52,053 bases of DNA from Pseudomonadota bacterium. Its GTDB lineage: Bacteria > Pseudomonadota > Alphaproteobacteria > Micavibrionales > Micavibrionaceae. Of this stretch, positions 11,971-25,141 are shown piece after piece. Numbering within the stretch: the stretch's first letter is position 1; each line of letters opens with the position of its first letter. The translations under genes and the position numbers were made by a program. The notes under the pieces are model-generated. The model made no database searches, was not told the DNA's origin, and worked only from the letters and a program-made list of their open reading frames with translations. Where the stretch lies: contig JBCCLQ010000001.1 in the NCBI GenBank assembly GCA_039026795.1, positions 1-52,053 of the forward strand. The letters are read 5' to 3'.

Positions 11971-12600
11971 TTATTCGGCTCGGTTTTCTGCGAAGAGAGC
12001 GTCGATATCGTCCTGAGATTGGGCTTTCATTTTGCCCTCTGAAACTTCTTCAACGGCTTTGTTCTTGTCGGTTTCAACGTTAATGCCTAAGCGATTTAAA
12101 GTGCCGCTCAAACGCTCTTCAATCATTTGCAGGTTTTCAAGCGTCTTGCGTATACGTTGCCCTGTTAAATCCTGGAAAGTACAGGCCAACAGAATGTTTT
12201 GAACATCACTTCTGATATTTTCTAAGAGCTCTTCGCGTTTGTCAGGATTGTCCCAGTCTTTTTGCTCACCCACAAGCTCTGCTATTCTGTCGGCGGCATC
12301 CAGAATTTTATTGGCTGCTTCTTCTGTATCGCCAATTACAGCTTCCAGTTCAACACCAGTATTTACCTGTGTTTCTCCCTCGCCTTGATAGGATATCGCA
12401 GACATAATATCCAGTATTTCACTAAAGCGTCGCGCAATGCCTTCTTCGGCCATATCGACTTGCTGGGATGTGGCATTGATTTCCATGGAAATTTCATCAA
12501 AACGGCGGGCAATGAATTGTTCCATAAGAGACAATTTGTCATTAATGCCGAAGACTGAGTCTTCCAAATCACCGACAACGTTTTCGGGTTCTTTACTCAC
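11971..12600 (-). CDS. cheZ: CheZ-like CheY-P phosphatase
   Basis: The FQDLTGQRIRK motif matches the CheZ active-site QDxTGQ, within a long helical acidic protein. Preferred start is GTG 12600, with GGAGA 7 nt upstream. The track ORF extends to 12663. Confidence 0.65.
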   Translation of the reverse strand: MSKEPENVVGDLEDSVFGINDKLSLMEQFIARRFDEISMEINATSQQVDMAEEGIARRFSEILDIMSAISYQGEGETQVNTGVELEAVIGDTEEAANKILDAADRIAELVGEQKDWDNPDKREELLENIRSDVQNILLACTFQDLTGQRIRKTLENLQMIEERLSGTLNRLGINVETDKNKAVEEVSEGKMKAQSQDDIDALFAENRAE

Positions 12601-12724
12601 TATTATATCTCCAAATAATCTATGGTAGTAAACGAATTTCAACATGGAATGTCCAGAAGACAATCCACAGATTAAGGCTTAATCCCCTTAATCTTCTGTT
12701 AAAAACCTTAAAACATAAGATAGC

Positions 12725-13957
12725 ATGTCGTTTATGAAGATATTGATTGCATGGGAACTAGGAAAAAACTTCGGCCATATCATCAAAATTATTGAAATGG
12801 CTAAGCCTCTTTATGATAGGGGGGCAGAGATTATTTTTGCAGTTCAGGATCCAGGTGAATTTCTAAAGTTCAAACCTGACTATCCATATACAATGCTTCA
12901 GGCACCTTTCGCATCGATCCGACCTATAAAATCCCCAATTTTGACTTTTACAGATGACTTACGCCCCTGTGGGTATAACAATTCCAGTACAATGGCTGGC
13001 CTCATAGAAGCATGGCGTTCGCTATATGATTTGGTGTCGCCGGATATTTTAGTGACACAATCTTCACCTACTGCTTTGATAGCTGCCCGGGATCTTAATT
13101 TCCCAAAAGTTGCATTTGGAACATCTTACGAGCTTCCTCCTCTTCAGACTCCTATGCCGCTAATACCTTACTGGGAAAATGTAAGCGAAGATATTTTGTT
13201 GAAGCGTGAACAAGATGTTCTTTCAAATGTTAATGAAGCTCTCAAAGGCTTCTCTATTAAGCTTTATGATCATTTTTCGGACATTTATGAAGTGGATGCA
13301 AAATTTGTTTGCGGTTTTGAAGAACTTGATCATTACCCGGATAGACAGGAAAATGTGAAATATTATGGCACGTTGTTCAAAACCAATGCTGGTGCATCGC
13401 TGAAATGGAACTCAAAAGCATCCAAACATATTTTTGCGTATCTGCGACCTAAAGAAAAATCATTCAAACCAGTATTTTCTGCGCTGTGCGAGTTGCCGAA
13501 TAATTACGATGTGATTATTGCTGCTCCTGGCATCGATCCAAAGCTAAAGGAAGCATACGAGAACAATCATGTTGGTATCGAAGACGGACCGGTGAAGCTG
13601 GATAATATTATGTCGAAATGTGATTTGGCTGTATGCCATGCTGGAGTTGGTATTTCCTCTGCTTTCTTGCTAAAAGGTGTTCCGCTTATGTTGTTTCCTG
13701 GACACATAGAACAATTGATGTTCGGTCGTGCAATTGGACGGTTAGGCGCAGGGCGCGGAGCGTTTGGTCACGTCACAACCGATAAGGTTCATGAGTTAAT
13801 TAATTTGTTGCTGAATGAAGAAGAGTTTAAGGAAGCTGCAAAATCATTCGCTAAAAAATATAAAGGATACAAACCTTCGAAAGCTGTCGAAGACATGGCG
13901 GATGAAATTTTTAAACTCTCCAAATCCAAAAAGCCACGTAAGAAAAAACGCGCTTAA
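12725..13957 (+). CDS. GT-B glycosyltransferase (GT1/GT28, MGT-like)
   Basis: The C-terminal block CDLAVCHAGVGISSAFLLKGVPLMLFPGHIEQ is typical of UDP-sugar GT-B enzymes. It has a Lys-rich tail (KSKKPRKKKRA) and lower GC than its neighbours. Confidence 0.7.
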   Translation: MSFMKILIAWELGKNFGHIIKIIEMAKPLYDRGAEIIFAVQDPGEFLKFKPDYPYTMLQAPFASIRPIKSPILTFTDDLRPCGYNNSSTMAGLIEAWRSLYDLVSPDILVTQSSPTALIAARDLNFPKVAFGTSYELPPLQTPMPLIPYWENVSEDILLKREQDVLSNVNEALKGFSIKLYDHFSDIYEVDAKFVCGFEELDHYPDRQENVKYYGTLFKTNAGASLKWNSKASKHIFAYLRPKEKSFKPVFSALCELPNNYDVIIAAPGIDPKLKEAYENNHVGIEDGPVKLDNIMSKCDLAVCHAGVGISSAFLLKGVPLMLFPGHIEQLMFGRAIGRLGAGRGAFGHVTTDKVHELINLLLNEEEFKEAAKSFAKKYKGYKPSKAVEDMADEIFKLSKSKKPRKKKRA

Positions 13958-14835
13958 ACAAACTCCTTTGCCAGAGCTTCGATGTGTTCAGGTCCGATAC
14001 CGCAACAACCGCCAATAATGCTAGCGCCGTCGGAACACCATTTTTTTGCAAATTCCAAATATAGTTCAGGTGTTAATTCGTTGCGCATTTCTGTTAAACC
14101 GTCATTGGCTTCATTGTTATCTTGTGCTTCTGCGAAAGTATTGGCGTAAGCACCGATTTGCATAGCATCACTAAGGACATTTTTTGCAGCGAGGATTGCG
14201 TCTTCCATTTCCTCAGGTTGCGAGCAATTAAAGAGGATGGCTTCAACACCCTTCATATTTTTTAAGGCTTTCGCGCAATCCTCAATCGTTTCTCCTGAAC
14301 GATTCCTGACAGTTGTATTTTTATCTTCACGCTCGCTTACCGTAAAAGAAATCCAAATGGGTTTATTTGTATTCTTTAGATGATCATAAGCCATTTGTGC
14401 TTCTTGAATTGCGGATGTTGTTTCCACCAGCCAGACATTGACAAAATCCTGTTGCTCTTCGATCAGAGGCTTCAGCAGATCTGGTGCTTTTTCACCATCG
14501 AAGTCATCCGGCGCGTAAGAGCCAAAAAGTGGAGGAATGCATCCTGCAACTTTCACATTATTTCCGGCAACATCCTTTGCGATTGTGGCTGCGAGACTAA
14601 TTAATTCACGGCCCTGCTCATTAAACCGATCCCAGCCGATATGGAACGGGACAAGTGCATACGTGTTTGTTGTAATCACTTCCGCTCCGGCATCAATAAA
14701 GGATTGATGCGCTTGCGTGACTGTTTCCGGTGCTTCCATCAAAGCCAAAGCAGACCATTCAGGTTGTTTGAAGGGCGCGCCCATACGTTTTAATTCGCGG
14801 CCCATGCCGCCATCGAGAATTGTGATTTTTGTCAT
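13954..14835 (-). CDS. mmuM: Homocysteine S-methyltransferase
   Basis: ILDGGMGREL at the N-terminus and GGCCGIGPEHI at the C-terminus (zinc-binding Cys pair of the Pfam S-methyl_trans family). Confidence 0.85.
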   Translation of the reverse strand: MTKITILDGGMGRELKRMGAPFKQPEWSALALMEAPETVTQAHQSFIDAGAEVITTNTYALVPFHIGWDRFNEQGRELISLAATIAKDVAGNNVKVAGCIPPLFGSYAPDDFDGEKAPDLLKPLIEEQQDFVNVWLVETTSAIQEAQMAYDHLKNTNKPIWISFTVSEREDKNTTVRNRSGETIEDCAKALKNMKGVEAILFNCSQPEEMEDAILAAKNVLSDAMQIGAYANTFAEAQDNNEANDGLTEMRNELTPELYLEFAKKWCSDGASIIGGCCGIGPEHIEALAKEFV

Positions 14836-15170: not shown

Positions 15171-15890
15171 TTAAGGCTTTAATAACGCCCGCGCGGAAAC
15201 CGTGAGTTGAATGGTGGTTTCACCGGCGGCGGCCACCGGAGCAACCATTTCCATGGATGATGCCATCGCCATACCACGTGCGTGATGCACGGGATGATAG
15301 GGGATGCCGGAGCTTTGCACGCTGACATCGCGCAAATCGGCCTTCGATTTGCCCAAAGCTGCTGCTGCCCGATCCGCGCGTTCCTGAAGTTGTTTGAGCG
15401 CCGCTTCCATCAGATTATCTTGCACCTCCACGGCTGTTTTGGGGGCGAGCATGTAGGACAAGCCGTTCATATTCAGTCCCATATCCTGTAATTTTCCCGC
15501 CAGTTCCAACACATCGTCCGCTTCCATGGATTTCAGCGTCAGGTTTTGTTGTCCGCGCCATAGCTTTTCTTTCGTACGCGGTTCCGTGGTTTCGTATACT
15601 TGATAGGAGCCAGTATTCACCTTCACCGTATTGACCTTTTTGGCAGTTTCCAGAGCCTTCGCCATAGTTTTGTTGATTTCGTTTTGGACGAATTTGGGAT
15701 CGCGATTGGTGATGGTGAAGGACAGGTTCGCGACCAGTAAATCCTGCTCGACCTCTTTGCGCTCCGTTGCTGAAATATTCAAAATGACCTGACCGTCGGG
15801 CATGGACAGGATCGGGTCTTCCACCTGTGCCATGGCGGGGGTGGCATAAAGCATTGATATGGTGAGTAGAACGGTGAACACGGCGCGCAT
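15171..15890 (-). CDS. SIMPL-domain (DUF541/BP26-like) periplasmic protein
   Basis: Signal peptide MRAVFTVLLTISMLYATPAMAQ, with SIMPL-like length and pattern. The start was moved to 15890 because AAGGAG lies 6 nt upstream. Confidence 0.8.
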   Translation of the reverse strand: MRAVFTVLLTISMLYATPAMAQVEDPILSMPDGQVILNISATERKEVEQDLLVANLSFTITNRDPKFVQNEINKTMAKALETAKKVNTVKVNTGSYQVYETTEPRTKEKLWRGQQNLTLKSMEADDVLELAGKLQDMGLNMNGLSYMLAPKTAVEVQDNLMEAALKQLQERADRAAAALGKSKADLRDVSVQSSGIPYHPVHHARGMAMASSMEMVAPVAAAGETTIQLTVSARALLKP

Positions 15891-15963
15891 GGCAAGCTCC
15901 TTTATGGGTTTCGATGCGCGTACTATAGCGGCTTCGATGGCATGCGGGAAGAGGGGAGGCAAA

Positions 15964-16250: not shown

Positions 16251-16649
16251 TTATTGTGCGTCCTGCATCTCCCTCTGGCGCATGGGCATGGCGTCGATGA
16301 GGGCGAAGAGCTCTTCGGCCGCCACGGGTTTGTCCCAACGGCCTTTTTCACCGCCATCCTTGCCGATCAGAATGACAATGAATTGATGCGGTTCGACATC
16401 AAATTGCATGTAACGCGCCATGGTATCGGGCGCGGGCGTTATGCCGCGGACGATCAGATCACGCTCCGCAAAACCGTCCGCATGATCGACCACAATTTTG
16501 GCCTGCGCTTCGACCTTGTCCTGCACGCTCTCATCCCCATTGAAAACGAGCAGCACGCGGTTTTGCCAACGTAACTCTTCCAGACTTTGGGCATGCGTGG
16601 TCATGGGTAAGATCATAAACAGAGCGAGGAGACTGGTGAAGTCAGGCAT
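16251..16649 (-). CDS. DUF4174-domain secreted protein
   Basis: WQNRVLLVF...ERDLIV...FIVILIGKDGGEKGRW is a DUF4174-like pattern, with signal peptide MPDFTSLLALFMILPMTTHAQS. The start is uncertain (16649, 16676 or 16721); the longer versions run into a palindromic element. Confidence 0.65.
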   Translation of the reverse strand: MPDFTSLLALFMILPMTTHAQSLEELRWQNRVLLVFNGDESVQDKVEAQAKIVVDHADGFAERDLIVRGITPAPDTMARYMQFDVEPHQFIVILIGKDGGEKGRWDKPVAAEELFALIDAMPMRQREMQDAQ

Positions 16650-16674
16650 AGATATGACTATACACTGGATTGTC

Positions 16675-16696
16675 ATGCCCGCCAACGTGCGGGCAT
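16675..16696. repeat. REP-like hairpin
   Basis: ATGCCCGC-caacgt-GCGGGCAT, followed by CCGGATCC. Confidence 0.5.
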
Positions 16697-16762
16697 CCGG
16701 ATCCCCGCATAAAGCAGGCATAACGGGTTGGCTAAGAGCTTTCGGTCCTAATCATTTTCTGG

Positions 16763-16804
16763 ATCCCGTTTGTGCAAGCTCACTGTTGTTCGCGCCAACG
16801 GGAT
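16763..16804. repeat. REP-like inverted repeat
   Basis: ATCCCGTT and AACGGGAT separated by 26 nt. Confidence 0.4.
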
Positions 16805-16838
16805 GACGGATTCCTAAGACCAAGGTCTAAGGTATCGG

Positions 16839-16877
16839 TCACTTATCGTCACCCATTTTAAGGGCATTGATGAAGGC
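16839..16877 (-). pseudogene. Relic copy of the lepA 3' end (encodes [12 protein letters not shown])
   Basis: The minus-strand translation gives [12 protein letters not shown]-stop, compared with the [11 protein letters not shown]-stop that ends the intact lepA. It lies in an intergenic position. Confidence 0.75.
16852..16877. repeat. Direct repeat copy A (CCCATTTTAAGGGCATTGATGAAGGC)
   Basis: Matches 17804-17829 at 25 of 26 positions. Confidence 0.9.
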
Positions 16878-16882
16878 GAAAA

Positions 16883-17620
16883 CTAAGGTTTCCAAAATTC
16901 TAAACGCAAGCCTAAATAACCGTTCAGCAAGCTTGGTGCATTTTGTCCTGTTAAAGCTTTCGACAGTTCACCGGATGGAATATATCTAACCCCTGCCTCA
17001 ATGTTGGAATGACCCAAATCAAAGCCCACGCCAGCGCTGCTGAAAACATATAATAGACGACCACCAATAAGCGCTTCATCACGAATAACACCCTCGTAGC
17101 CATCAACCCAAGCCGCACCAGCGCCTACGCTGGCATAAATATTACTTAATAGATCACGATTGACGTGTCCGGCAACATAGGGGCCTTCAGAGCGCAGGAA
17201 ATGACTGTTTTCAAATGTGGTATATCCAGCTTCAGCGCCAAATGACCAAGGGCTATCTGGAGATGGCGTGTATTCTGCACCAAGACCTAAAGTCATAATA
17301 TGGTTAACTTCATTATAGCCACCTTTTGGAGCTCCGATGCTATTTGTGTGGTAAACACCCCCAGAGTAGGTGGCGGAGACATAAGGTGACCAATTGTCGT
17401 GTGTTTGTTGTTTCGCTCCGCCTTGTGCAGAACGATGATTGTCGGCATTGCTAGCATTCCCATAACGATCGACCAACATTCTTTGCAGAGAATCGGTTAT
17501 AATGGGGGCGGATGTGGTTATTGTTCCAGACCCCGCAGAGGCAGAAAAAGGATATAAAGCTGAAAACGCAACTGTAGTTACGGCAGCAAATACCCGTCGA
17601 ATCGACTGTGATATATTCAT
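16883..17620 (-). CDS. Outer-membrane beta-barrel protein (OmpA_membrane/porin-like, 8-10 strands)
   Basis: Signal peptide ending SASA|GS, alternating aromatic/Gly-rich strands, and a C-terminal ...GLRLEFWKP. GC is lower than in lepA. Confidence 0.65.
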   Translation of the reverse strand: MNISQSIRRVFAAVTTVAFSALYPFSASAGSGTITTSAPIITDSLQRMLVDRYGNASNADNHRSAQGGAKQQTHDNWSPYVSATYSGGVYHTNSIGAPKGGYNEVNHIMTLGLGAEYTPSPDSPWSFGAEAGYTTFENSHFLRSEGPYVAGHVNRDLLSNIYASVGAGAAWVDGYEGVIRDEALIGGRLLYVFSSAGVGFDLGHSNIEAGVRYIPSGELSKALTGQNAPSLLNGYLGLRLEFWKP

Positions 17621-17793
17621 GACACACCTCTTTATATGAATATACCTTACTTAAATTTTATGTAAAAATCAAATTTGTTTATTTTTTTCTATCGCATCTT
17701 GTTTCATCTTACGCTCTGGATCAAAGGTGGCGCATGGAATGATAAGTTGGTTGATAAAAAATCCCCATTTTCCGCGGGAAGCCATATGGGCGT

Positions 17794-19602
17794 TTATTCA
17801 TCTCCCATTTTGAGGGCATTGATGAAGGCTGATTGGGGGATTTCAACGTTCCCATATTGGCGCATTTTCTTTTTCCCCTTTTTCTGTTTTTCAAGGAGTT
17901 TGCGTTTTCGCGAGACGTCACCACCATAACATTTGGCCGTCACATCCTTGCGCATCGCACTGATATGTTCGGCGGCGATGATTTTACCACCCAGGGCGGC
18001 CTGTACCGCGATTTTAAACATCTGGCGAGGGATGAGCTCCTTGAGGCGTTCGCACAGCTGCCGCCCGCGGCTTTCGGCGTTATCCTTATGCACGATCATG
18101 GCGAGCGCATCGACGGGTTCCTGATTGACGCGGATGTCGAGTTTCACCAGATCGTTTTTATCGTATCCGTCCAGCGCGTAATCGAAGGACGCATAGCCAC
18201 GCGAAATGGATTTCAGGCGGTCATAAAAATCAAATACCACTTCGTTGAGCGGCAGGCGGTACACGACCAACGCGCGGTTACCGGCATAGTTCAATTCGAT
18301 TTGCACGCCGCGGCGTTCCTGACACAGTGTGAGGATGCCACCCAAATATTCATCCGGTACAAGGATAGTGGCCTTGATCCACGGCTCTTCAATGCTTTCG
18401 ACCTTTTGCACATCGGGCATATCAACGGGATTGTACAGCTCCATCTGCTCTCCATTGGTGAGGTTGATTTTATAAACCACGGATGGCGCAGTGGGGATTA
18501 GGTCGAGGTCAAATTCACGCTCGAGGCGTTCCTGAATAATCTCCATATGGAGCAGGCCGAGGAAACCGCAGCGGAAACCGAGGCCGAGGGCTTGCGAGCT
18601 TTCGGTTTCATAATGCAGCGATGCGTCATTCAGTTTGATCTTACCAAGTGAATCGCGCAGCTTCTCATAATCTGACGCATCGGCGGGGAAGAGGGAGCAG
18701 AACACCATCGGCACGGAGGGCTTGAACCCCGGCAAGGCTTCTTCGCATTGGTTCTTTTCATCCGTGATGGTGTCACCGACTTTGGTTTCGGATATGTCTT
18801 TAATGCTCGCCGTGATGAAACCCATTTCACCGGGGCCAAGCTCATCAAGTAAAACATGTTTGGGGGTGAACATCCCGACGCGGTCAATGTCGCGGGTGGC
18901 TTCGGCCTTCATGAAACGGATTTTCTGTCCTTTTTTGAGGTAGCCGTCAATCACGCGCACCAGAATGACAACACCGAGATAGGCGTCATACCAGGAGTCG
19001 ACGAGTAGCGCTTTGGTTGGTTTCTCCGCATCGCCTTCAGACGGGGGCGGGAGTTTGGTGACAATCTCTTCCAGAAGCTGGTCGATATTGATACCCGTTT
19101 TACCGGAGACGGGGACAGCATCAGTCGCATCGAGGCCAATCACATCTTCGATTTGTTCGCTCGCACGATCAATATCGGCGGCCGGCAGGTCGATTTTGTT
19201 AATCACAGGCAGGATTTCATGATCGTTTTCGATGGCCTGATAGACATTCGCCAGCGTTTGCGCCTCCACGCCTTGGGTCGAATCCACGACCAGCAGCGAG
19301 CCTTCACAGGACGCCAGCGAGCGCGAGACTTCATAGGCAAAATCCACGTGACCCGGCGTGTCCATCAAATTGAGCTGGTATTCAACGCCGTCCTTGGCTT
19401 TATAAGACAGGCGGACGGTTTGCGCCTTGATCGTGATGCCGCGCTCGCGCTCGATCTCCATGTTATCGAGGACTTGTTCCTGCATCTCGCGTTCTTCTAG
19501 CCCGCCGCAGGTTTGAATCAGGCGGTCGGCAAGGGTGGATTTTCCGTGATCTATATGTGCTATGATGGCAAAGTTACGGATATGTTCTAATTTTTTACTC
19601 AC
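17794..19602 (-). CDS. lepA: Elongation factor 4
   Basis: [25 protein letters not shown] and NKIDL are the GTPase motifs, and the rest follows the full LepA pattern. Preferred start is GTG 19602 (GGAG 6 nt upstream), giving 602 aa. The track ORF extends to 19644. Confidence 0.95.
17804..17829. repeat. Direct repeat copy B, inside the lepA 3' coding end
   Basis: CCCATTTTGAGGGCATTGATGAAGGC. Confidence 0.9.
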
Positions 19603-19748
19603 GTCGCGCTCCAAAGTATTTGTGTTGCGAACAATGCGATGCATTGCTTCGCGTGCGCGATAATCGCGAAGTTTCTTATTTCATGTAGGGGCTTACTCAT
19701 ACGCTAATGATGTAGCGGATTAAGCGTAGAAAGGGAAGGGGGGAGCGC

Positions 19749-22542: not shown

Positions 22543-23514
22543 ATGGCAAGCGATGCAGATAGTCCAGAAGTAAATACTACGCACCCTCAAGCTCCAGGAG
22601 GCGGAAATCCTACAGGAGGTAACAGTCTTCCAGATAATATAGATCTTGATACGCCTGAAGGTAGAGCGGCTTTAGCAAGGACACCTGAGGGTAGGCATAT
22701 ATTAAGTGAGGCCCGTTTAGACGCAGAAAGTGCTGCCAGAGTTCGTGATGCAGATGCAAATGCTGGTGCAAGAACAGCAGAAGGAAAAGCAGCCACAACC
22801 GTTGCTAATGCACAAGCAGATGCAGCCAGAAATGGTTCTGGAGGTAGGGGCAAAGGCATTATGAGGGCTGCCAGAAGTGTTTTTACATGGGCATTAGTTG
22901 GTGCTGCTGCTGACGTTGTGATGAGTGAGAATACACTCGGTGGTACTCCAATTCCTGGTACTTCTATCACTGTGCCAGGTGCAAACAGGCCGTCAGTTTT
23001 ATTAGGTGAACCGGATAGAAATCCTGAAGGGTCACCTACACCTATTCAGGGAGAAAATCCAGGTGCGCTGGATGATGCTGGCAGCTTGGCAAGAGATAGG
23101 CTGGCTGCTTCAGCAGAGTTAACCCAAAGACAAGCTGAGTACGCTCGCTTAGATCCGGGAAGACTTCCAGAATTCGGGCAAAATGATGTCACTGTTATCG
23201 CTGGCGGAATACGTGGAACACTGGATTTGCCTGAGTATTCAGATATCAGTCCAGAGGCGAAACAGTGCATGCTTGGTGCGTTTAGTGCTGCAGCACAAAT
23301 AGCAAATGCAGAACATCCGGTGGCAACTCAAAGAAGTGAATTCTTAGATGCTTTTGGAAGGTATGCGAGTGGCGAGGATGATCAATATGGTTGGGCAAAA
23401 TGTGTTAAAGATCACCCTGAGTTAGAAAGTGTGGCAGGGCAAGTTGAACAGGATTTTCTTACTAGAGGTTCAGGTATGCAGGCAACGATATCAAGAGCAC
23501 CCGGTTGGAAATAA
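22543..23514 (+). CDS. Hypothetical protein (disordered Gly/Pro/Ala-rich N-terminus, one hydrophobic segment)
   Basis: 323-aa ORF with GAGGT about 7 nt upstream. Arg codons are strongly biased to AGA/AGG, unlike the neighbouring core genes. Confidence 0.6.
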   Translation: MASDADSPEVNTTHPQAPGGGNPTGGNSLPDNIDLDTPEGRAALARTPEGRHILSEARLDAESAARVRDADANAGARTAEGKAATTVANAQADAARNGSGGRGKGIMRAARSVFTWALVGAAADVVMSENTLGGTPIPGTSITVPGANRPSVLLGEPDRNPEGSPTPIQGENPGALDDAGSLARDRLAASAELTQRQAEYARLDPGRLPEFGQNDVTVIAGGIRGTLDLPEYSDISPEAKQCMLGAFSAAAQIANAEHPVATQRSEFLDAFGRYASGEDDQYGWAKCVKDHPELESVAGQVEQDFLTRGSGMQATISRAPGWK

Positions 23515-23532
23515 GGTTATAAGGAGAAGGTA

Positions 23533-24342
23533 ATGGTTTCAGATTTTAATCTTAATAGTGCAGCAAATTGGCTAAGCGGAGATCCTACTCAAGGTGAAGG
23601 GCAAGGTGTTTCTCTGGAGAGTTTGACTGATCAGTTTCGTGGAGATACGTCAGCAATCAGGGATGTATTACGCTCGCGTTTAAACGCAGTTATCACAAAT
23701 TTAGAAGTACTTGGTAAGGCAGGTATTGAACCTTCGCAAGCACAACTGCAATCATTTGCACAGATATTGACGCAATATGTTAGCTTGGATGCGCAGTTGA
23801 CAATGAATGTGCCAAGACACCAGCAAGATGCTTTCCATCAATACGAACAAATGTTGTTGAATGGTGATGCAAACTTACAGCTCAAATCTGTTGAAGGTAT
23901 TGCTAGTGCTGATAGTTGGTGGGGTTGGGCCGGACAAACTCTTATAAAAATTATAGATGGTCTGGAAAGTCTAGGAGTAGAAAGAGAATCTCTAGCTATG
24001 TTTGAAAATATGGCTAACCGCTGGGTTGAGAGTGCGCAAGCAAGTCCAGAAGACGGAAACGGAAAATATATTCAAGCAGATGAAGGTCGCATAATAACAG
24101 GGCGTCGTCCTGATTTTGATGCAGCTGCAGGCATATCAGATAGTGCTGAATTATCGCTAGATCCCATGGTAGGTCAAAAAGTGCTTGAGTTTACACAGCT
24201 AACGCAATCGCTGATGACTGAATTAGACGAGCTAGCTAGAATACATGAGTTACAAGATTGGCAAAGTAGTGTTACCACTACTGATCCGAGTGCTGGAAGT
24301 GCACCAAGGCCATCGGCAAGAGACTTAGTTCCAGTTCGATAA
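23533..24342 (+). CDS. Hypothetical helical protein
   Basis: 269-aa ORF starting 18 nt after the previous stop, with AAGGAGAAGG upstream. No Cys and no recognisable family. Confidence 0.6.
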   Translation: MVSDFNLNSAANWLSGDPTQGEGQGVSLESLTDQFRGDTSAIRDVLRSRLNAVITNLEVLGKAGIEPSQAQLQSFAQILTQYVSLDAQLTMNVPRHQQDAFHQYEQMLLNGDANLQLKSVEGIASADSWWGWAGQTLIKIIDGLESLGVERESLAMFENMANRWVESAQASPEDGNGKYIQADEGRIITGRRPDFDAAAGISDSAELSLDPMVGQKVLEFTQLTQSLMTELDELARIHELQDWQSSVTTTDPSAGSAPRPSARDLVPVR

Positions 24343-24379
24343 AGAATAAAATAGAATAAAACTTTTTTAATAATAAATA

Positions 24380-24414
24380 AAAGCCTAATACCTATCTATG
24401 TGGTATTAGGCTTT
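24380..24414. terminator. Bidirectional hairpin terminator between convergent orphan genes
   Basis: 13-bp stem AAAGCCTAATACC / GGTATTAGGCTTT with a 9-nt loop. On the minus strand it is followed by a T-rich tract. The stop codon of the 249-aa ORF lies at the stem-loop junction. Confidence 0.65.
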
Positions 24415-25141
24415 CTGCTGTTGGTCCTGTTGGAGCAGTGTTTTCTGATATTCCCAAATAATCCTGTATTAACGCTTTATCTTCTGCATAAGGCTCCGTC
24501 CCTGTAATATGATGTGCCCAAAGAGCCCTACCTGAAGCTTGGATTATAGGACTATCATATATTTCATAAAAACCGGCGACTGATGCAGATGCGCTGGAAC
24601 TTGCGGTTAATACAGGTGTGCCAAGCAAAGATGGTATGCCATGTGTGGCCGCTGCCCTAGCAGCTAGCGGAGCGCTCGCCACCATGGGAGCCAATGTTCC
24701 AGCCGTGTGTAAACAATTATCCAGATCATCAATGGCTTGCGGCATTTGACCGTCCACTGCGATAACAAGGCCTTCATAGCCATCTGTGAGTGATGTGTGA
24801 ATATGTTCCGATCCTAAAAATGGATTATCTGTCATTGGGCCGATATCAACCTCTACGCCCGGAATAACATTGACAGCATTTAGTATGCGGGGTGCATGGT
24901 TAACGCCGTCCACAACATAACCGGGTAGAGAAGCCAGCCCAATGAGACCGCGATTTACGCCATCGGCAAAAAAATTAAAGCTGTTCCACATACGGCCGGG
25001 GCTAATATCCCCTTCGATATTGTTAATACACGGCACTTCATGTCCAAAAACCGTAATAGGTTGATGATAGGCACCATTGGCCGTAGCATCGGAAAATCCG
25101 TTATTTACGTTTGTACCTGTTTGTATGCCATCCTGAGGCAT
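24392..25141 (-). CDS. Hypothetical protein
   Basis: 249-aa ORF with its own promoter-like element. No family recognised. Confidence 0.55.
   Translation of the reverse strand: MPQDGIQTGTNVNNGFSDATANGAYHQPITVFGHEVPCINNIEGDISPGRMWNSFNFFADGVNRGLIGLASLPGYVVDGVNHAPRILNAVNVIPGVEVDIGPMTDNPFLGSEHIHTSLTDGYEGLVIAVDGQMPQAIDDLDNCLHTAGTLAPMVASAPLAARAAATHGIPSLLGTPVLTASSSASASVAGFYEIYDSPIIQASGRALWAHHITGTEPYAEDKALIQDYLGISENTAPTGPTAESLIPHR

Follow-up and report, generated by a model that had tools for sequence, protein, structure and literature searches.

A one-gene insertion at the 3′ end of lepA in a Micavibrionaceae bacterium, and small recombinase-less inserts at the same site in other alphaproteobacteria

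A repeated lepA tail around a single gene

We analyzed a 52,053-nt stretch of a Micavibrionaceae genome (Alphaproteobacteria; NCBI GenBank assembly GCA_039026795.1, contig JBCCLQ010000001.1, positions 1 to 52,053), hereafter the window. Within it lepA, the gene for elongation factor 4, is followed by a single open reading frame (ORF) for a 245-aa protein, by a second copy of the last nucleotides of lepA (its tail) and by a DUF4174 gene (Table 1). The repeated sequence, CCCATTTT(A/G)AGGGCATTGATGAAGGC on the plus strand, is a 26-mer present in exactly two copies in the window (16852-16877 and 17804-17829), which agree at 25 of 26 positions. The copy number stayed at two when up to three mismatches were permitted in the window scan, and 100 dinucleotide-preserving shuffles gave no match, in agreement with an earlier note on this DNA, which had judged the repeat to be far beyond chance. 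That note had also named membership of a dispersed repeat family as grounds for abandoning its interpretation; with only two copies in the window, we dropped a dispersed-repeat origin. A whole-window repeat search likewise found no third member, and this is the only such pair in 52 kb. Ungapped extension lengthens the repeat to 32 nt, 29 of them identical (16846-16877 versus 17798-17829), at a spacing of 952 bp. Read on the minus strand, the proximal copy is the coding end of the 616-aa LepA ORF (19644..17794), and the distal copy (16877..16839) lies in non-coding DNA in which the lepA-tail frame can still be read, as GDDK followed by TGA. The copies are near-identical over GCCTTCATCAATGCCCT(C/T)AAAATGGG and part sharply immediately to the right of this core (AGATGAATAA versus TGACGATAAGTGA), a pattern that points to recombination between similar sites and not to target-site duplication. 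As the note had described, the copies enclose only one gene resembling those for outer-membrane proteins (OMPs), the 245-aa ORF, and its AT-rich upstream region of 173 nt (35% GC).

Comparison with related loci, designated here by L numbers, shows an empty ancestral state. In the metagenome locus L101, lepA ends ...GGAGATGATAAG-TGA, encoding GDDK, and is followed directly by a homologue of window 16846..16715; the match begins within the tail and runs over 175 nt at 70.9% identity (window 16878..16715). This is the empty site that the earlier note had predicted, in which a lepA ending in GDDK runs straight into the sequence on the 16838 side. Loci L108 and L109, the closest relatives with 95% LepA identity, have the order 809-aa protein, lepA, DUF4174, 104-aa protein and homocysteine methyltransferase, and the window has the same order with the addition of the OMP gene and a SIMPL gene. 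A further empty site, L116, is the counterpart of an occupied locus, L110, described below. The OMP gene was found in none of the relatives, so that none carries it beside lepA; an OMP gene following lepA without any repeat, which would have spoken against insertion, was therefore not seen. The alignments thus show the 952-bp unit to be an insertion relative to an ancestral lepA-hairpin-DUF4174 arrangement.

The two tail copies can also be told apart by origin. Among 120 LepA relatives, 45 end in GDDK, including all of the nearest ones, and the functional tail in the window, INALKMGDE (GDE-TAA), is an outlier. The displaced copy reads GDDK-TGA, as do L001 and L101. On this evidence the distal copy is the displaced original end of lepA and the proximal, lepA-attached copy the imported one. 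The final codons and stop of the window lepA are therefore supplied by the inserted DNA, and the note's proposal that the incoming DNA brought a replacement 3′ end is borne out. The LepA protein of the window is 94-95% identical to those of L001, L107 and L108. The nearest relatives are only 82-85% identical in DNA, so that comparison was uninformative on a recombination tract inside the window lepA.

Elsewhere, the 23-nt core was found in metagenomes at 20 lepA ends and as three in-frame chance matches in unrelated genes; the sequence available around those 20 lepA ends holds no second copy. Older, degraded tail copies further downstream in the window, L001 and L002 were sought as well, and none scored above shuffles. 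In-frame matches to a DNA pattern for FINALKMG lie within unrelated genes at L094 13755, L096 7355, L102 415 (metagenome) and L118 649 (viral), whose flanking residues read as glycogen-synthase-like, glycosyltransferase-like, MntP-like and phage capsid-like, respectively. Given the size of the databases, these four matches are probably due to chance, though all four are in frame.

The 245-aa cargo protein matches no Pfam family and has no close homologue among 5.8 billion proteins. An exhaustive HMMER search returned two remote relatives (182-194 aa, E ~1e-10), neither of which adjoins lepA and both of which end in Phe. The N-terminus of the cargo protein is signal-peptide-like. An AlphaFold model built from the three-sequence alignment has a pLDDT of 60 and eight strands over residues 77-241, and its best Foldseek matches in the PDB are OmpA-TM, Ail, NspA, OmpX and PagP (E = 5e-6, TM ~0.5). 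A single-sequence model was useless (pLDDT 30), and a profile search of the cargo family against PDB sequences gave nothing meaningful. The protein is thus probably an eight-stranded outer-membrane β-barrel with an extra N-terminal segment of ~50 aa. The earlier description of it as a β-barrel OMP rests on the signal-peptide-like start, the Phe-ending remote homologues and the modest eight-strand model, and finds no backing in Pfam. Outer-membrane β-barrels are expected to end in an aromatic residue, which serves as the β-signal. The cargo ends ...LRLEF-WKP (window 16883-16895, minus strand), three residues beyond the Phe at which both remote homologues stop; the TGG that follows TTT may represent a former stop codon changed by mutation, and the gene could thus be slightly degraded. 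The note had also taken a lower GC content as a sign of foreign origin. At 0.461, the cargo gene equals the window mean (0.462) and is lower only relative to its GC-rich neighbors, lepA (0.524) and DUF4174 (0.552), which are the GC-high outliers. Foreignness by GC content or codon usage was accordingly dropped.

Table 1. Features of the lepA 3′ region in the window
Feature	Position	Strand	Basis or remark
lepA (elongation factor 4), 616-aa ORF	17794..19644	-	Pfam GTP_EFTU, EFG_C, LepA_C
Proximal (attL-like) lepA-tail copy, functional lepA end	17798..17829 (26-mer core 17804-17829)	-	Repeat comparison
Imported lepA end right of the shared core, AGATGAA-TAA giving GDE-stop	17794..17803	-	Unlike ancestral GDDK-TGA; outlier tail
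Cassette 5′ non-coding leader, 173 nt, 35% GC	17621..17793	-	GC computed
Promoter-like TTTACA-16-TATATT in cassette leader	17666..17639	-	Consensus scan, 10/12 match
Weak terminator-like hairpin in cassette leader	17780..17762	-	Consensus match
Cargo gene, 245-aa orphan, candidate OMP	16883..17620	-	ORF list; stop 5 nt before distal tail copy
Distal (attR-like) copy, displaced ancestral lepA tail, attached to no gene	16839..16877	-	Matches native lepA ends of L001, L101 and L108
Native post-stop hairpin of lepA, now 3′ of cargo gene	16803..16842	-	ΔG -15.9 kcal/mol, z = -3.6
Ancestral lepA-downstream intergenic DNA	16715..16838	-	Homologous to DNA directly after lepA in L101
Palindromic element GTCATCCCG...CGGGATC in ancestral spacer	16762-16807	-	Pattern scan
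DUF4174 gene, ancestral neighbor downstream of lepA	16251..16721	-	Pfam DUF4174; homologue directly after lepA in L108/L109

The 5′ arm of the native hairpin contains the ancestral TGA (GUGAC...GUCAU). The counterpart in L101 (738-795, minus strand) has another stem sequence, with a ΔG of -19 and z = -4.9. A hairpin thus stands at the ancestral lepA stop in both the window and L101, with differing stems and no Rfam match, which suggests a conserved structural 3′ element of lepA transcripts. A cassette-borne terminator after the new lepA stop was considered and rejected, since folding energy gave it no support (z = 0.26); because no hairpin is supported there, read-through from lepA into the cargo gene is possible. 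The palindrome of the ancestral spacer, GTCATCCCG-N(4-34)-CGGGATC, recurs at L101 701-745, L110 (four copies), L116 1455-1478 and L027 (two copies). These alphaproteobacterial loci include one from a Rickettsia endosymbiont, and in L110 the element occurs within the cassette. It looks like a dispersed family of the repetitive extragenic palindrome or miniature inverted-repeat transposable element type.

LepA relatives assign the window to a Micavibrio-like clade of alphaproteobacteria. Its remainder is ordinary chromosome, with genes for aconitase, purH, a che operon, MipZ, arginine biosynthesis and an Opp-type ABC transporter. No tRNA gene was found in the window, and Rfam families gave no match in the window or, at a permissive threshold, in the region. 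The SIMPL (DUF541) gene (window 15171-15962, minus strand) sits between DUF4174 and the gene for the 104-aa protein, is absent from that position in L108 and L109, and is present elsewhere in the neighborhood in L110 and L114; it is the second gene in this flexible stretch behind lepA whose presence varies between loci. Near lepA, with an 809-aa orphan in between, three adjoining ORFs (window 22543-25141; 323, 269 and 249 aa) belong to no Pfam family and have a third-position GC content of 0.26-0.34 (z ~ -2). They may be another block of lineage-specific or acquired genes.

Occupied lepA tails in other lineages

Duplicated lepA tails around short inserts were also found in other alphaproteobacteria. 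In L002, a Micavibrio-like locus with 88% LepA identity, lepA ends GDEK-TAA and is followed by 71 nt with promoter-like hexamers (by eye), a gene for a 137-aa secreted-type protein, 16 nt and a second tail, GDEK-TGA; the unit measures 538 bp. The second tail nearly equals the native lepA end of L001. The Micavibrio-like L110 has GDE-TAG, a 216-aa membrane protein, ~470 nt with palindromic elements and a second tail, GDE-TGA, in a 1166-bp unit. This insertion was found by prediction. Outlier LepA tails were taken as predictors of insertion and two outliers, P0061 and P0110, were looked up; the tail of P0061 led to the L110 insertion, as predicted, and P0110, on a short contig, showed no second copy.

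L110 has a 99%-identical sister, L116, in which lepA is followed directly by YrhK, without an insert. The two lepA genes differ at 22 of 1806 positions; four of the differences cluster in the final 19 nt, and the 320 nt before these are identical (P ~1e-4). This pattern shows that exchange was confined to the lepA tail. Right after lepA (98.8% identical), the loci differ by 1915 bp (L110 3876-5791 versus L116 3290-3300), with the cassette, the second copy of the tail and a gene for a methyltransferase making up the extra DNA of L110. At its far junction, the methyltransferase gene retains only an 8-nt remnant of the lepA end, GAATAATC. L110 thus suggests stacked insertions with different junction types.

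Four more distant alphaproteobacteria complete the set. In L052, a 57-nt tail is present three times, with a prepilin-like gene in each of the two intervals; the two genes have diverged, the units being 72% and the tails ~87% identical. In L066, a 70-nt tail is duplicated around a 395-aa AAA_16 ATPase. In L018 and L053, the copies of a 24-35-nt tail enclose a short non-coding insert in which a common motif occurs, L053 being the less certain, with a scaffold gap between the copies. In L053 4330-4560, between the tail copies, lie tandem units of ~45 nt, each with a GGACCTTCGGTCC hairpin; a stretch of N interrupts the series, and L018 shares with L053 the motif preceding the distal copy. With the window, these loci amount to eight units in seven loci, all of 85-1357 bp, where up to 10 kb downstream was searchable. 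The stop codon of the cargo gene lies close to the tail copy, at 5 nt in the window, 16 nt in L002 and ~6 nt in L066. The comparison shows the same spot in lepA holding unrelated small cargo in other lineages.

We scored tail duplication for every ORF of at least 200 aa in all loci, requiring a match at 22 or more of 26 positions in the 4 kb downstream. A duplicated tail was present for 6 of 78 lepA genes and for 2 of 1301 other ORFs (Fisher p = 7e-7), counts that follow two corrections, the return of a mislabeled lepA to its own group and the exclusion of a tandem paralogue. In the unbiased genome scan alone, 4 of 62 lepA genes were positive (p = 5e-5). These counts show the lepA tail to be a recurrent and, as far as these loci go, specific target. 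The tail has no extra conservation at the DNA level, ranking 307 of 564 windows by synonymous sites; with such average constraint, it does not stand out as an anchor for homology within the gene. Among the ORFs other than lepA, just two, L009 7887-8660 and L027 2626-3228 (minus strand), have their last ~20 nt repeated further downstream, at distances of 46 nt and 3.3 kb; these are possibly scars of the same kind at other genes.

Routes by which the unit may have been inserted

The most economical mechanism for these arrangements would be conservative, site-specific recombination at the lepA tail with the enzyme provided in trans, an account that we offer tentatively and hold to be somewhat short of probable. 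In such a process (attP × attB giving attL + attR), the exchange that brought the 952-bp unit into the chromosome would have taken place within the final ~30 nt of lepA. Three parts would make up the unit, namely a mimic of the lepA tail that includes a stop codon, an AT-rich leader bearing the promoter-like site and the single OMP-like gene; it would itself be cassette-sized and not the stump of a large island. As a small circle, it would pair through its tail-mimicking site with the lepA tail, and crossover would take place in or beside AAAATGGG, the right-hand limit of identity in the window and L002. Because no recombinase is present in cis, the enzyme would be encoded elsewhere in the genome or on a helper element. 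After insertion, LepA would be intact, with only its terminal Lys lost, and the cargo would probably be transcribed from its own promoter or by lepA read-through, ending at the original post-stop hairpin of lepA. The empty site would then carry lepA...AAAATGGG joined to TGACGATAAGTGACCGATACC, and the circle a junction reading ...GGAAACCTTAGTTTTCGCCTTCATCAATGCCCT(C/T)AAAATGGGAGATGAATAAACGCCC. The units that occupy this site in other lineages, being small and compact, favor a cassette over a decayed island.

A broader proposal would make the lepA tail a dedicated alphaproteobacterial landing pad for miniature, recombinase-less and mostly single-gene cassettes, each with a tail mimic as its recombination site, that are inserted, stacked and exchanged by a trans-acting recombinase or by host machinery, amounting to integron-like capture without an integron. 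We regard this wider proposal as possible and distinctly doubtful.

Several results weigh against a dedicated enzyme acting at a defined site. No recombinase or transposase domain was detected in the cassette or in the 52-kb window, and a catalytic-motif scan together with phmmer found no recombinase beside lepA in 119 loci. Tyrosine recombinases were returned by the motif scan only in L025, where a tRNA-Ser(GGA) precedes a 576-aa tyrosine integrase, 0.8 kb downstream of lepA (12590-14523), and in L074, where a XerD-like gene lies 6.7 kb from lepA and is unrelated to it. The L025 integrase is that of a conventional tRNA-targeted island, unrelated to the lepA tail, and phmmer searches with both recombinases against 4949 ORFs of at least 100 aa gave nothing further. 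The absence of an integrase, as the earlier note had reported it, thus extends across the 52-kb window and all other occupied sites. Three scans of viral contigs for an attP-like tail gave 0, 0 and 1 match, the last a chance match in a capsid gene, and blastn of the whole cassette against plasmid and phage collections gave none. Lineages differ in how much is duplicated (~23 to 70 nt), the left edge of the block is offset by a few nucleotides even among the Micavibrio-like loci, and one L110 junction keeps only 8 nt. The core, by inspection, has no convincing inverted-repeat architecture and is not dif-like. Finally, a 53%-identical homologue of the L002 cargo stands immediately after lepA in L119 (7990-8438), with a TAATG overlap and with no tail copy in the 188 nt before the contig end. 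This gene family is either an old neighbor of lepA or a cassette that repeatedly targets it, and at least the L002 cargo gene may be such an old neighbor and not a roaming cassette.

As to the site itself, the only inverted pair in the imported copies is the 6-nt TTCATC...GATGAA, 18 nt apart. In both the window and L002, identity stops after AAAATGGG, as it would with an overlap at that point, without this proving one. Modules that depend on XerCD (integrative mobile elements exploiting Xer and pdif modules) are flanked by 28-bp dif-like sites with an 11-6-11 layout and ATAA...TTATG arms; such a module was rejected here, as the core TTCATCAATGCCCTCAAAATGGGAGAT has no dif arms by inspection against the consensus. 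A transposon or insertion sequence was likewise rejected, there being no terminal inverted repeats and no transposase, and the repeats being 26-41 nt long and diverging to the right of the core.

The strongest rival to trans-acting site-specific recombination is short-homology recombination without any dedicated recombinase, which strikes us as unlikely and still a serious contender. DNA carrying a short lepA-tail segment would integrate through RecA or a phage single-strand-annealing protein, either by a Campbell-type single crossover or by a double crossover, in which lepA would serve as the long left arm and the tail copy as the short right one, and a tail-cargo-tail arrangement, once formed, could spread to any relative because lepA is conserved. 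This route would yield the same topology and would accommodate both the variable 23-70-nt block with its shifting left edge and the failure to find a recombinase anywhere searched. The units of L052 resemble products of amplification or of recombination between tail copies, and L119, with its homologue of the L002 cargo natively beside lepA, offers a plausible donor arrangement. However, stretches of identity as short as the 23-26 nt seen here just reach, or fall short of, the minimum that RecA usually needs for efficient recombination. Nor does short homology explain the confinement of the events to the last ~30 nt of lepA, given a synonymous conservation in the tail no higher than in the rest of the gene, the near-absence of scars at other conserved genes of the same loci (2 of 1301), or how different cargos first gained a tail copy.

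Less favored again, and in our estimate fairly improbable, is a decayed island, that is, an integrase-bearing element (island, prophage, or integrative and conjugative or mobilizable element) that entered at a lepA-tail att site and later suffered internal deletions that left the att copies and one cargo gene. Such elements classically leave a conserved gene with its 3′ end duplicated, and the distal copy of an intact one, more than 10 kb away, would escape our scans. Two papers document lepA as a prophage attachment gene in Salmonella (PMC3603311, PMC5502288). Against this origin, all eight units in the seven loci are at most 1.4 kb long where 10 kb was searchable, no remnant of intermediate size was seen, and no integrase lies beside any lepA in the 119 loci. 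The compact junctions, with cargo stops 5-16 nt from the tail copy, would be unexpected from random internal deletions.

A local origin, in which the tail copy arose by tandem duplication, replication slippage or a long transposon target-site duplication and the OMP gene came independently, is very unlikely and already largely refuted. The tandem repetition in L052 of a unit of tail and pilin-like gene fits such an origin, but the window has one cargo gene and repeats nothing but the tail, and its two tail copies differ systematically to the right of the core and so were not identical at birth. Terminal inverted repeats and a transposase are lacking, the repeats of 26-41 nt far exceed known target-site duplications, and the empty-site relatives show a clean 952-bp difference. 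Chance similarity or an assembly artefact, for which one might cite the metagenome-type contig of the window and the scaffold gap between the copies in L053, is extremely improbable, given the absence of a shuffle match, a repeat shorter than the assembler k-mers that would make chimeras, and the same architecture in independent assemblies from different projects (L002, L110, L052 and L066).

Relation to known elements and significance

That mobile DNA can enter the 3′ end of a conserved gene and leave that end duplicated is textbook knowledge. The lepA inserts stand out by their size (0.1-1.4 kb, usually one gene and no recombinase) and by their recurrence at the same few lepA codons in several alphaproteobacterial lineages. 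Integrative mobilizable islands are known at the 3′ ends of conserved genes, with Salmonella genomic island 1 (SGI1) in the last 18 bp of trmE/thdF and mobilizable genomic islands (MGIs) in yicC. Similar to these, the lepA units hit the last codons of their target, are bounded by short direct repeats, bring a replacement end that keeps the gene intact, and vary in cargo at one site. However, SGI1 and the MGIs are 15-45 kb long and encode their own tyrosine integrase and excisionase, whereas the lepA units comprise 0.1-1.4 kb and one gene, with no recombinase in cis.

Cis-mobilizable elements (CIMEs) at the 3′ end of fda in Streptococcus thermophilus are att-flanked, lack an integrase and are thought to be mobile only with trans functions of a related element. 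They share with the lepA units an integrase-less state at the 3′ end of a conserved gene, and their tandem accretion resembles the L052 array. The CIMEs differ in being several kb long and recognizable deletion derivatives of known integrative and conjugative elements; no integrase-bearing parent element is known for the lepA tail. Prochlorococcus tycheposons and tRNA-tail arrays are reported by Hackl et al. 2023 to have partial 3′-end copies separating blocks of flexible cargo, some without a recombinase. Tycheposons target tRNA and tmRNA genes and are known as intact, recombinase-bearing elements, whereas the lepA units have a protein-coding tail and no intact element was seen.

In compactness, the lepA units resemble integron cassettes, being single-ORF elements at a site right after a stop codon, with varied cassettes at one site and series possible (L052). 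Unlike integron cassettes, they have no attC hairpin or cassette-end inverted repeat, no attI, no intI nearby, and no Rfam or structural signal; their repeated site is the coding tail of a housekeeping gene, and the window and L002 cassettes have promoter-like hexamers upstream of the cargo. The lepA unit thus resembles att-flanked, integrase-less 3′-end elements in its workings and integron cassettes in its compactness, and fails the defining tests of both, the first because there is no integrase in cis or known parent and the second because there is no attC or intI.

A search of the literature for a lepA-tail island site in alphaproteobacteria returned only the case of Salmonella prophages. 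Prophage integration in lepA of Salmonella enterica is reported by Bobay et al. 2013 (PMC3603311), citing Hermans 2006, and provides a likeness in that lepA serves there as a chromosomal attachment locus for mobile DNA. The Salmonella elements differ in being full, gammaproteobacterial prophages with integrases, and those papers (PMC3603311, PMC5502288) document no link to the alphaproteobacterial tail site.

Overall, the reading of the repeat pair in the earlier note as the footprint of an insertion is supported in its essentials and, since small recombinase-less inserts recur there, the lepA tail looks like a recurrent landing pad. Across lineages, the cargo ranges from an OMP-like barrel and a small secreted protein to a membrane protein, pilin-like proteins and an AAA ATPase. 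If the inserts are only scars of decayed islands or of homologous exchange, an atypical LepA C-terminus would still be a useful marker of insertion, as it was for L110. If the cassettes are mobile in their own right, they would represent a compact route of gene capture outside integrons, and a concrete search for the responsible recombinase would become possible. The lepA tail would then offer a defined, highly conserved site at which poorly studied predatory and marine alphaproteobacteria could swap flexible surface and envelope genes.

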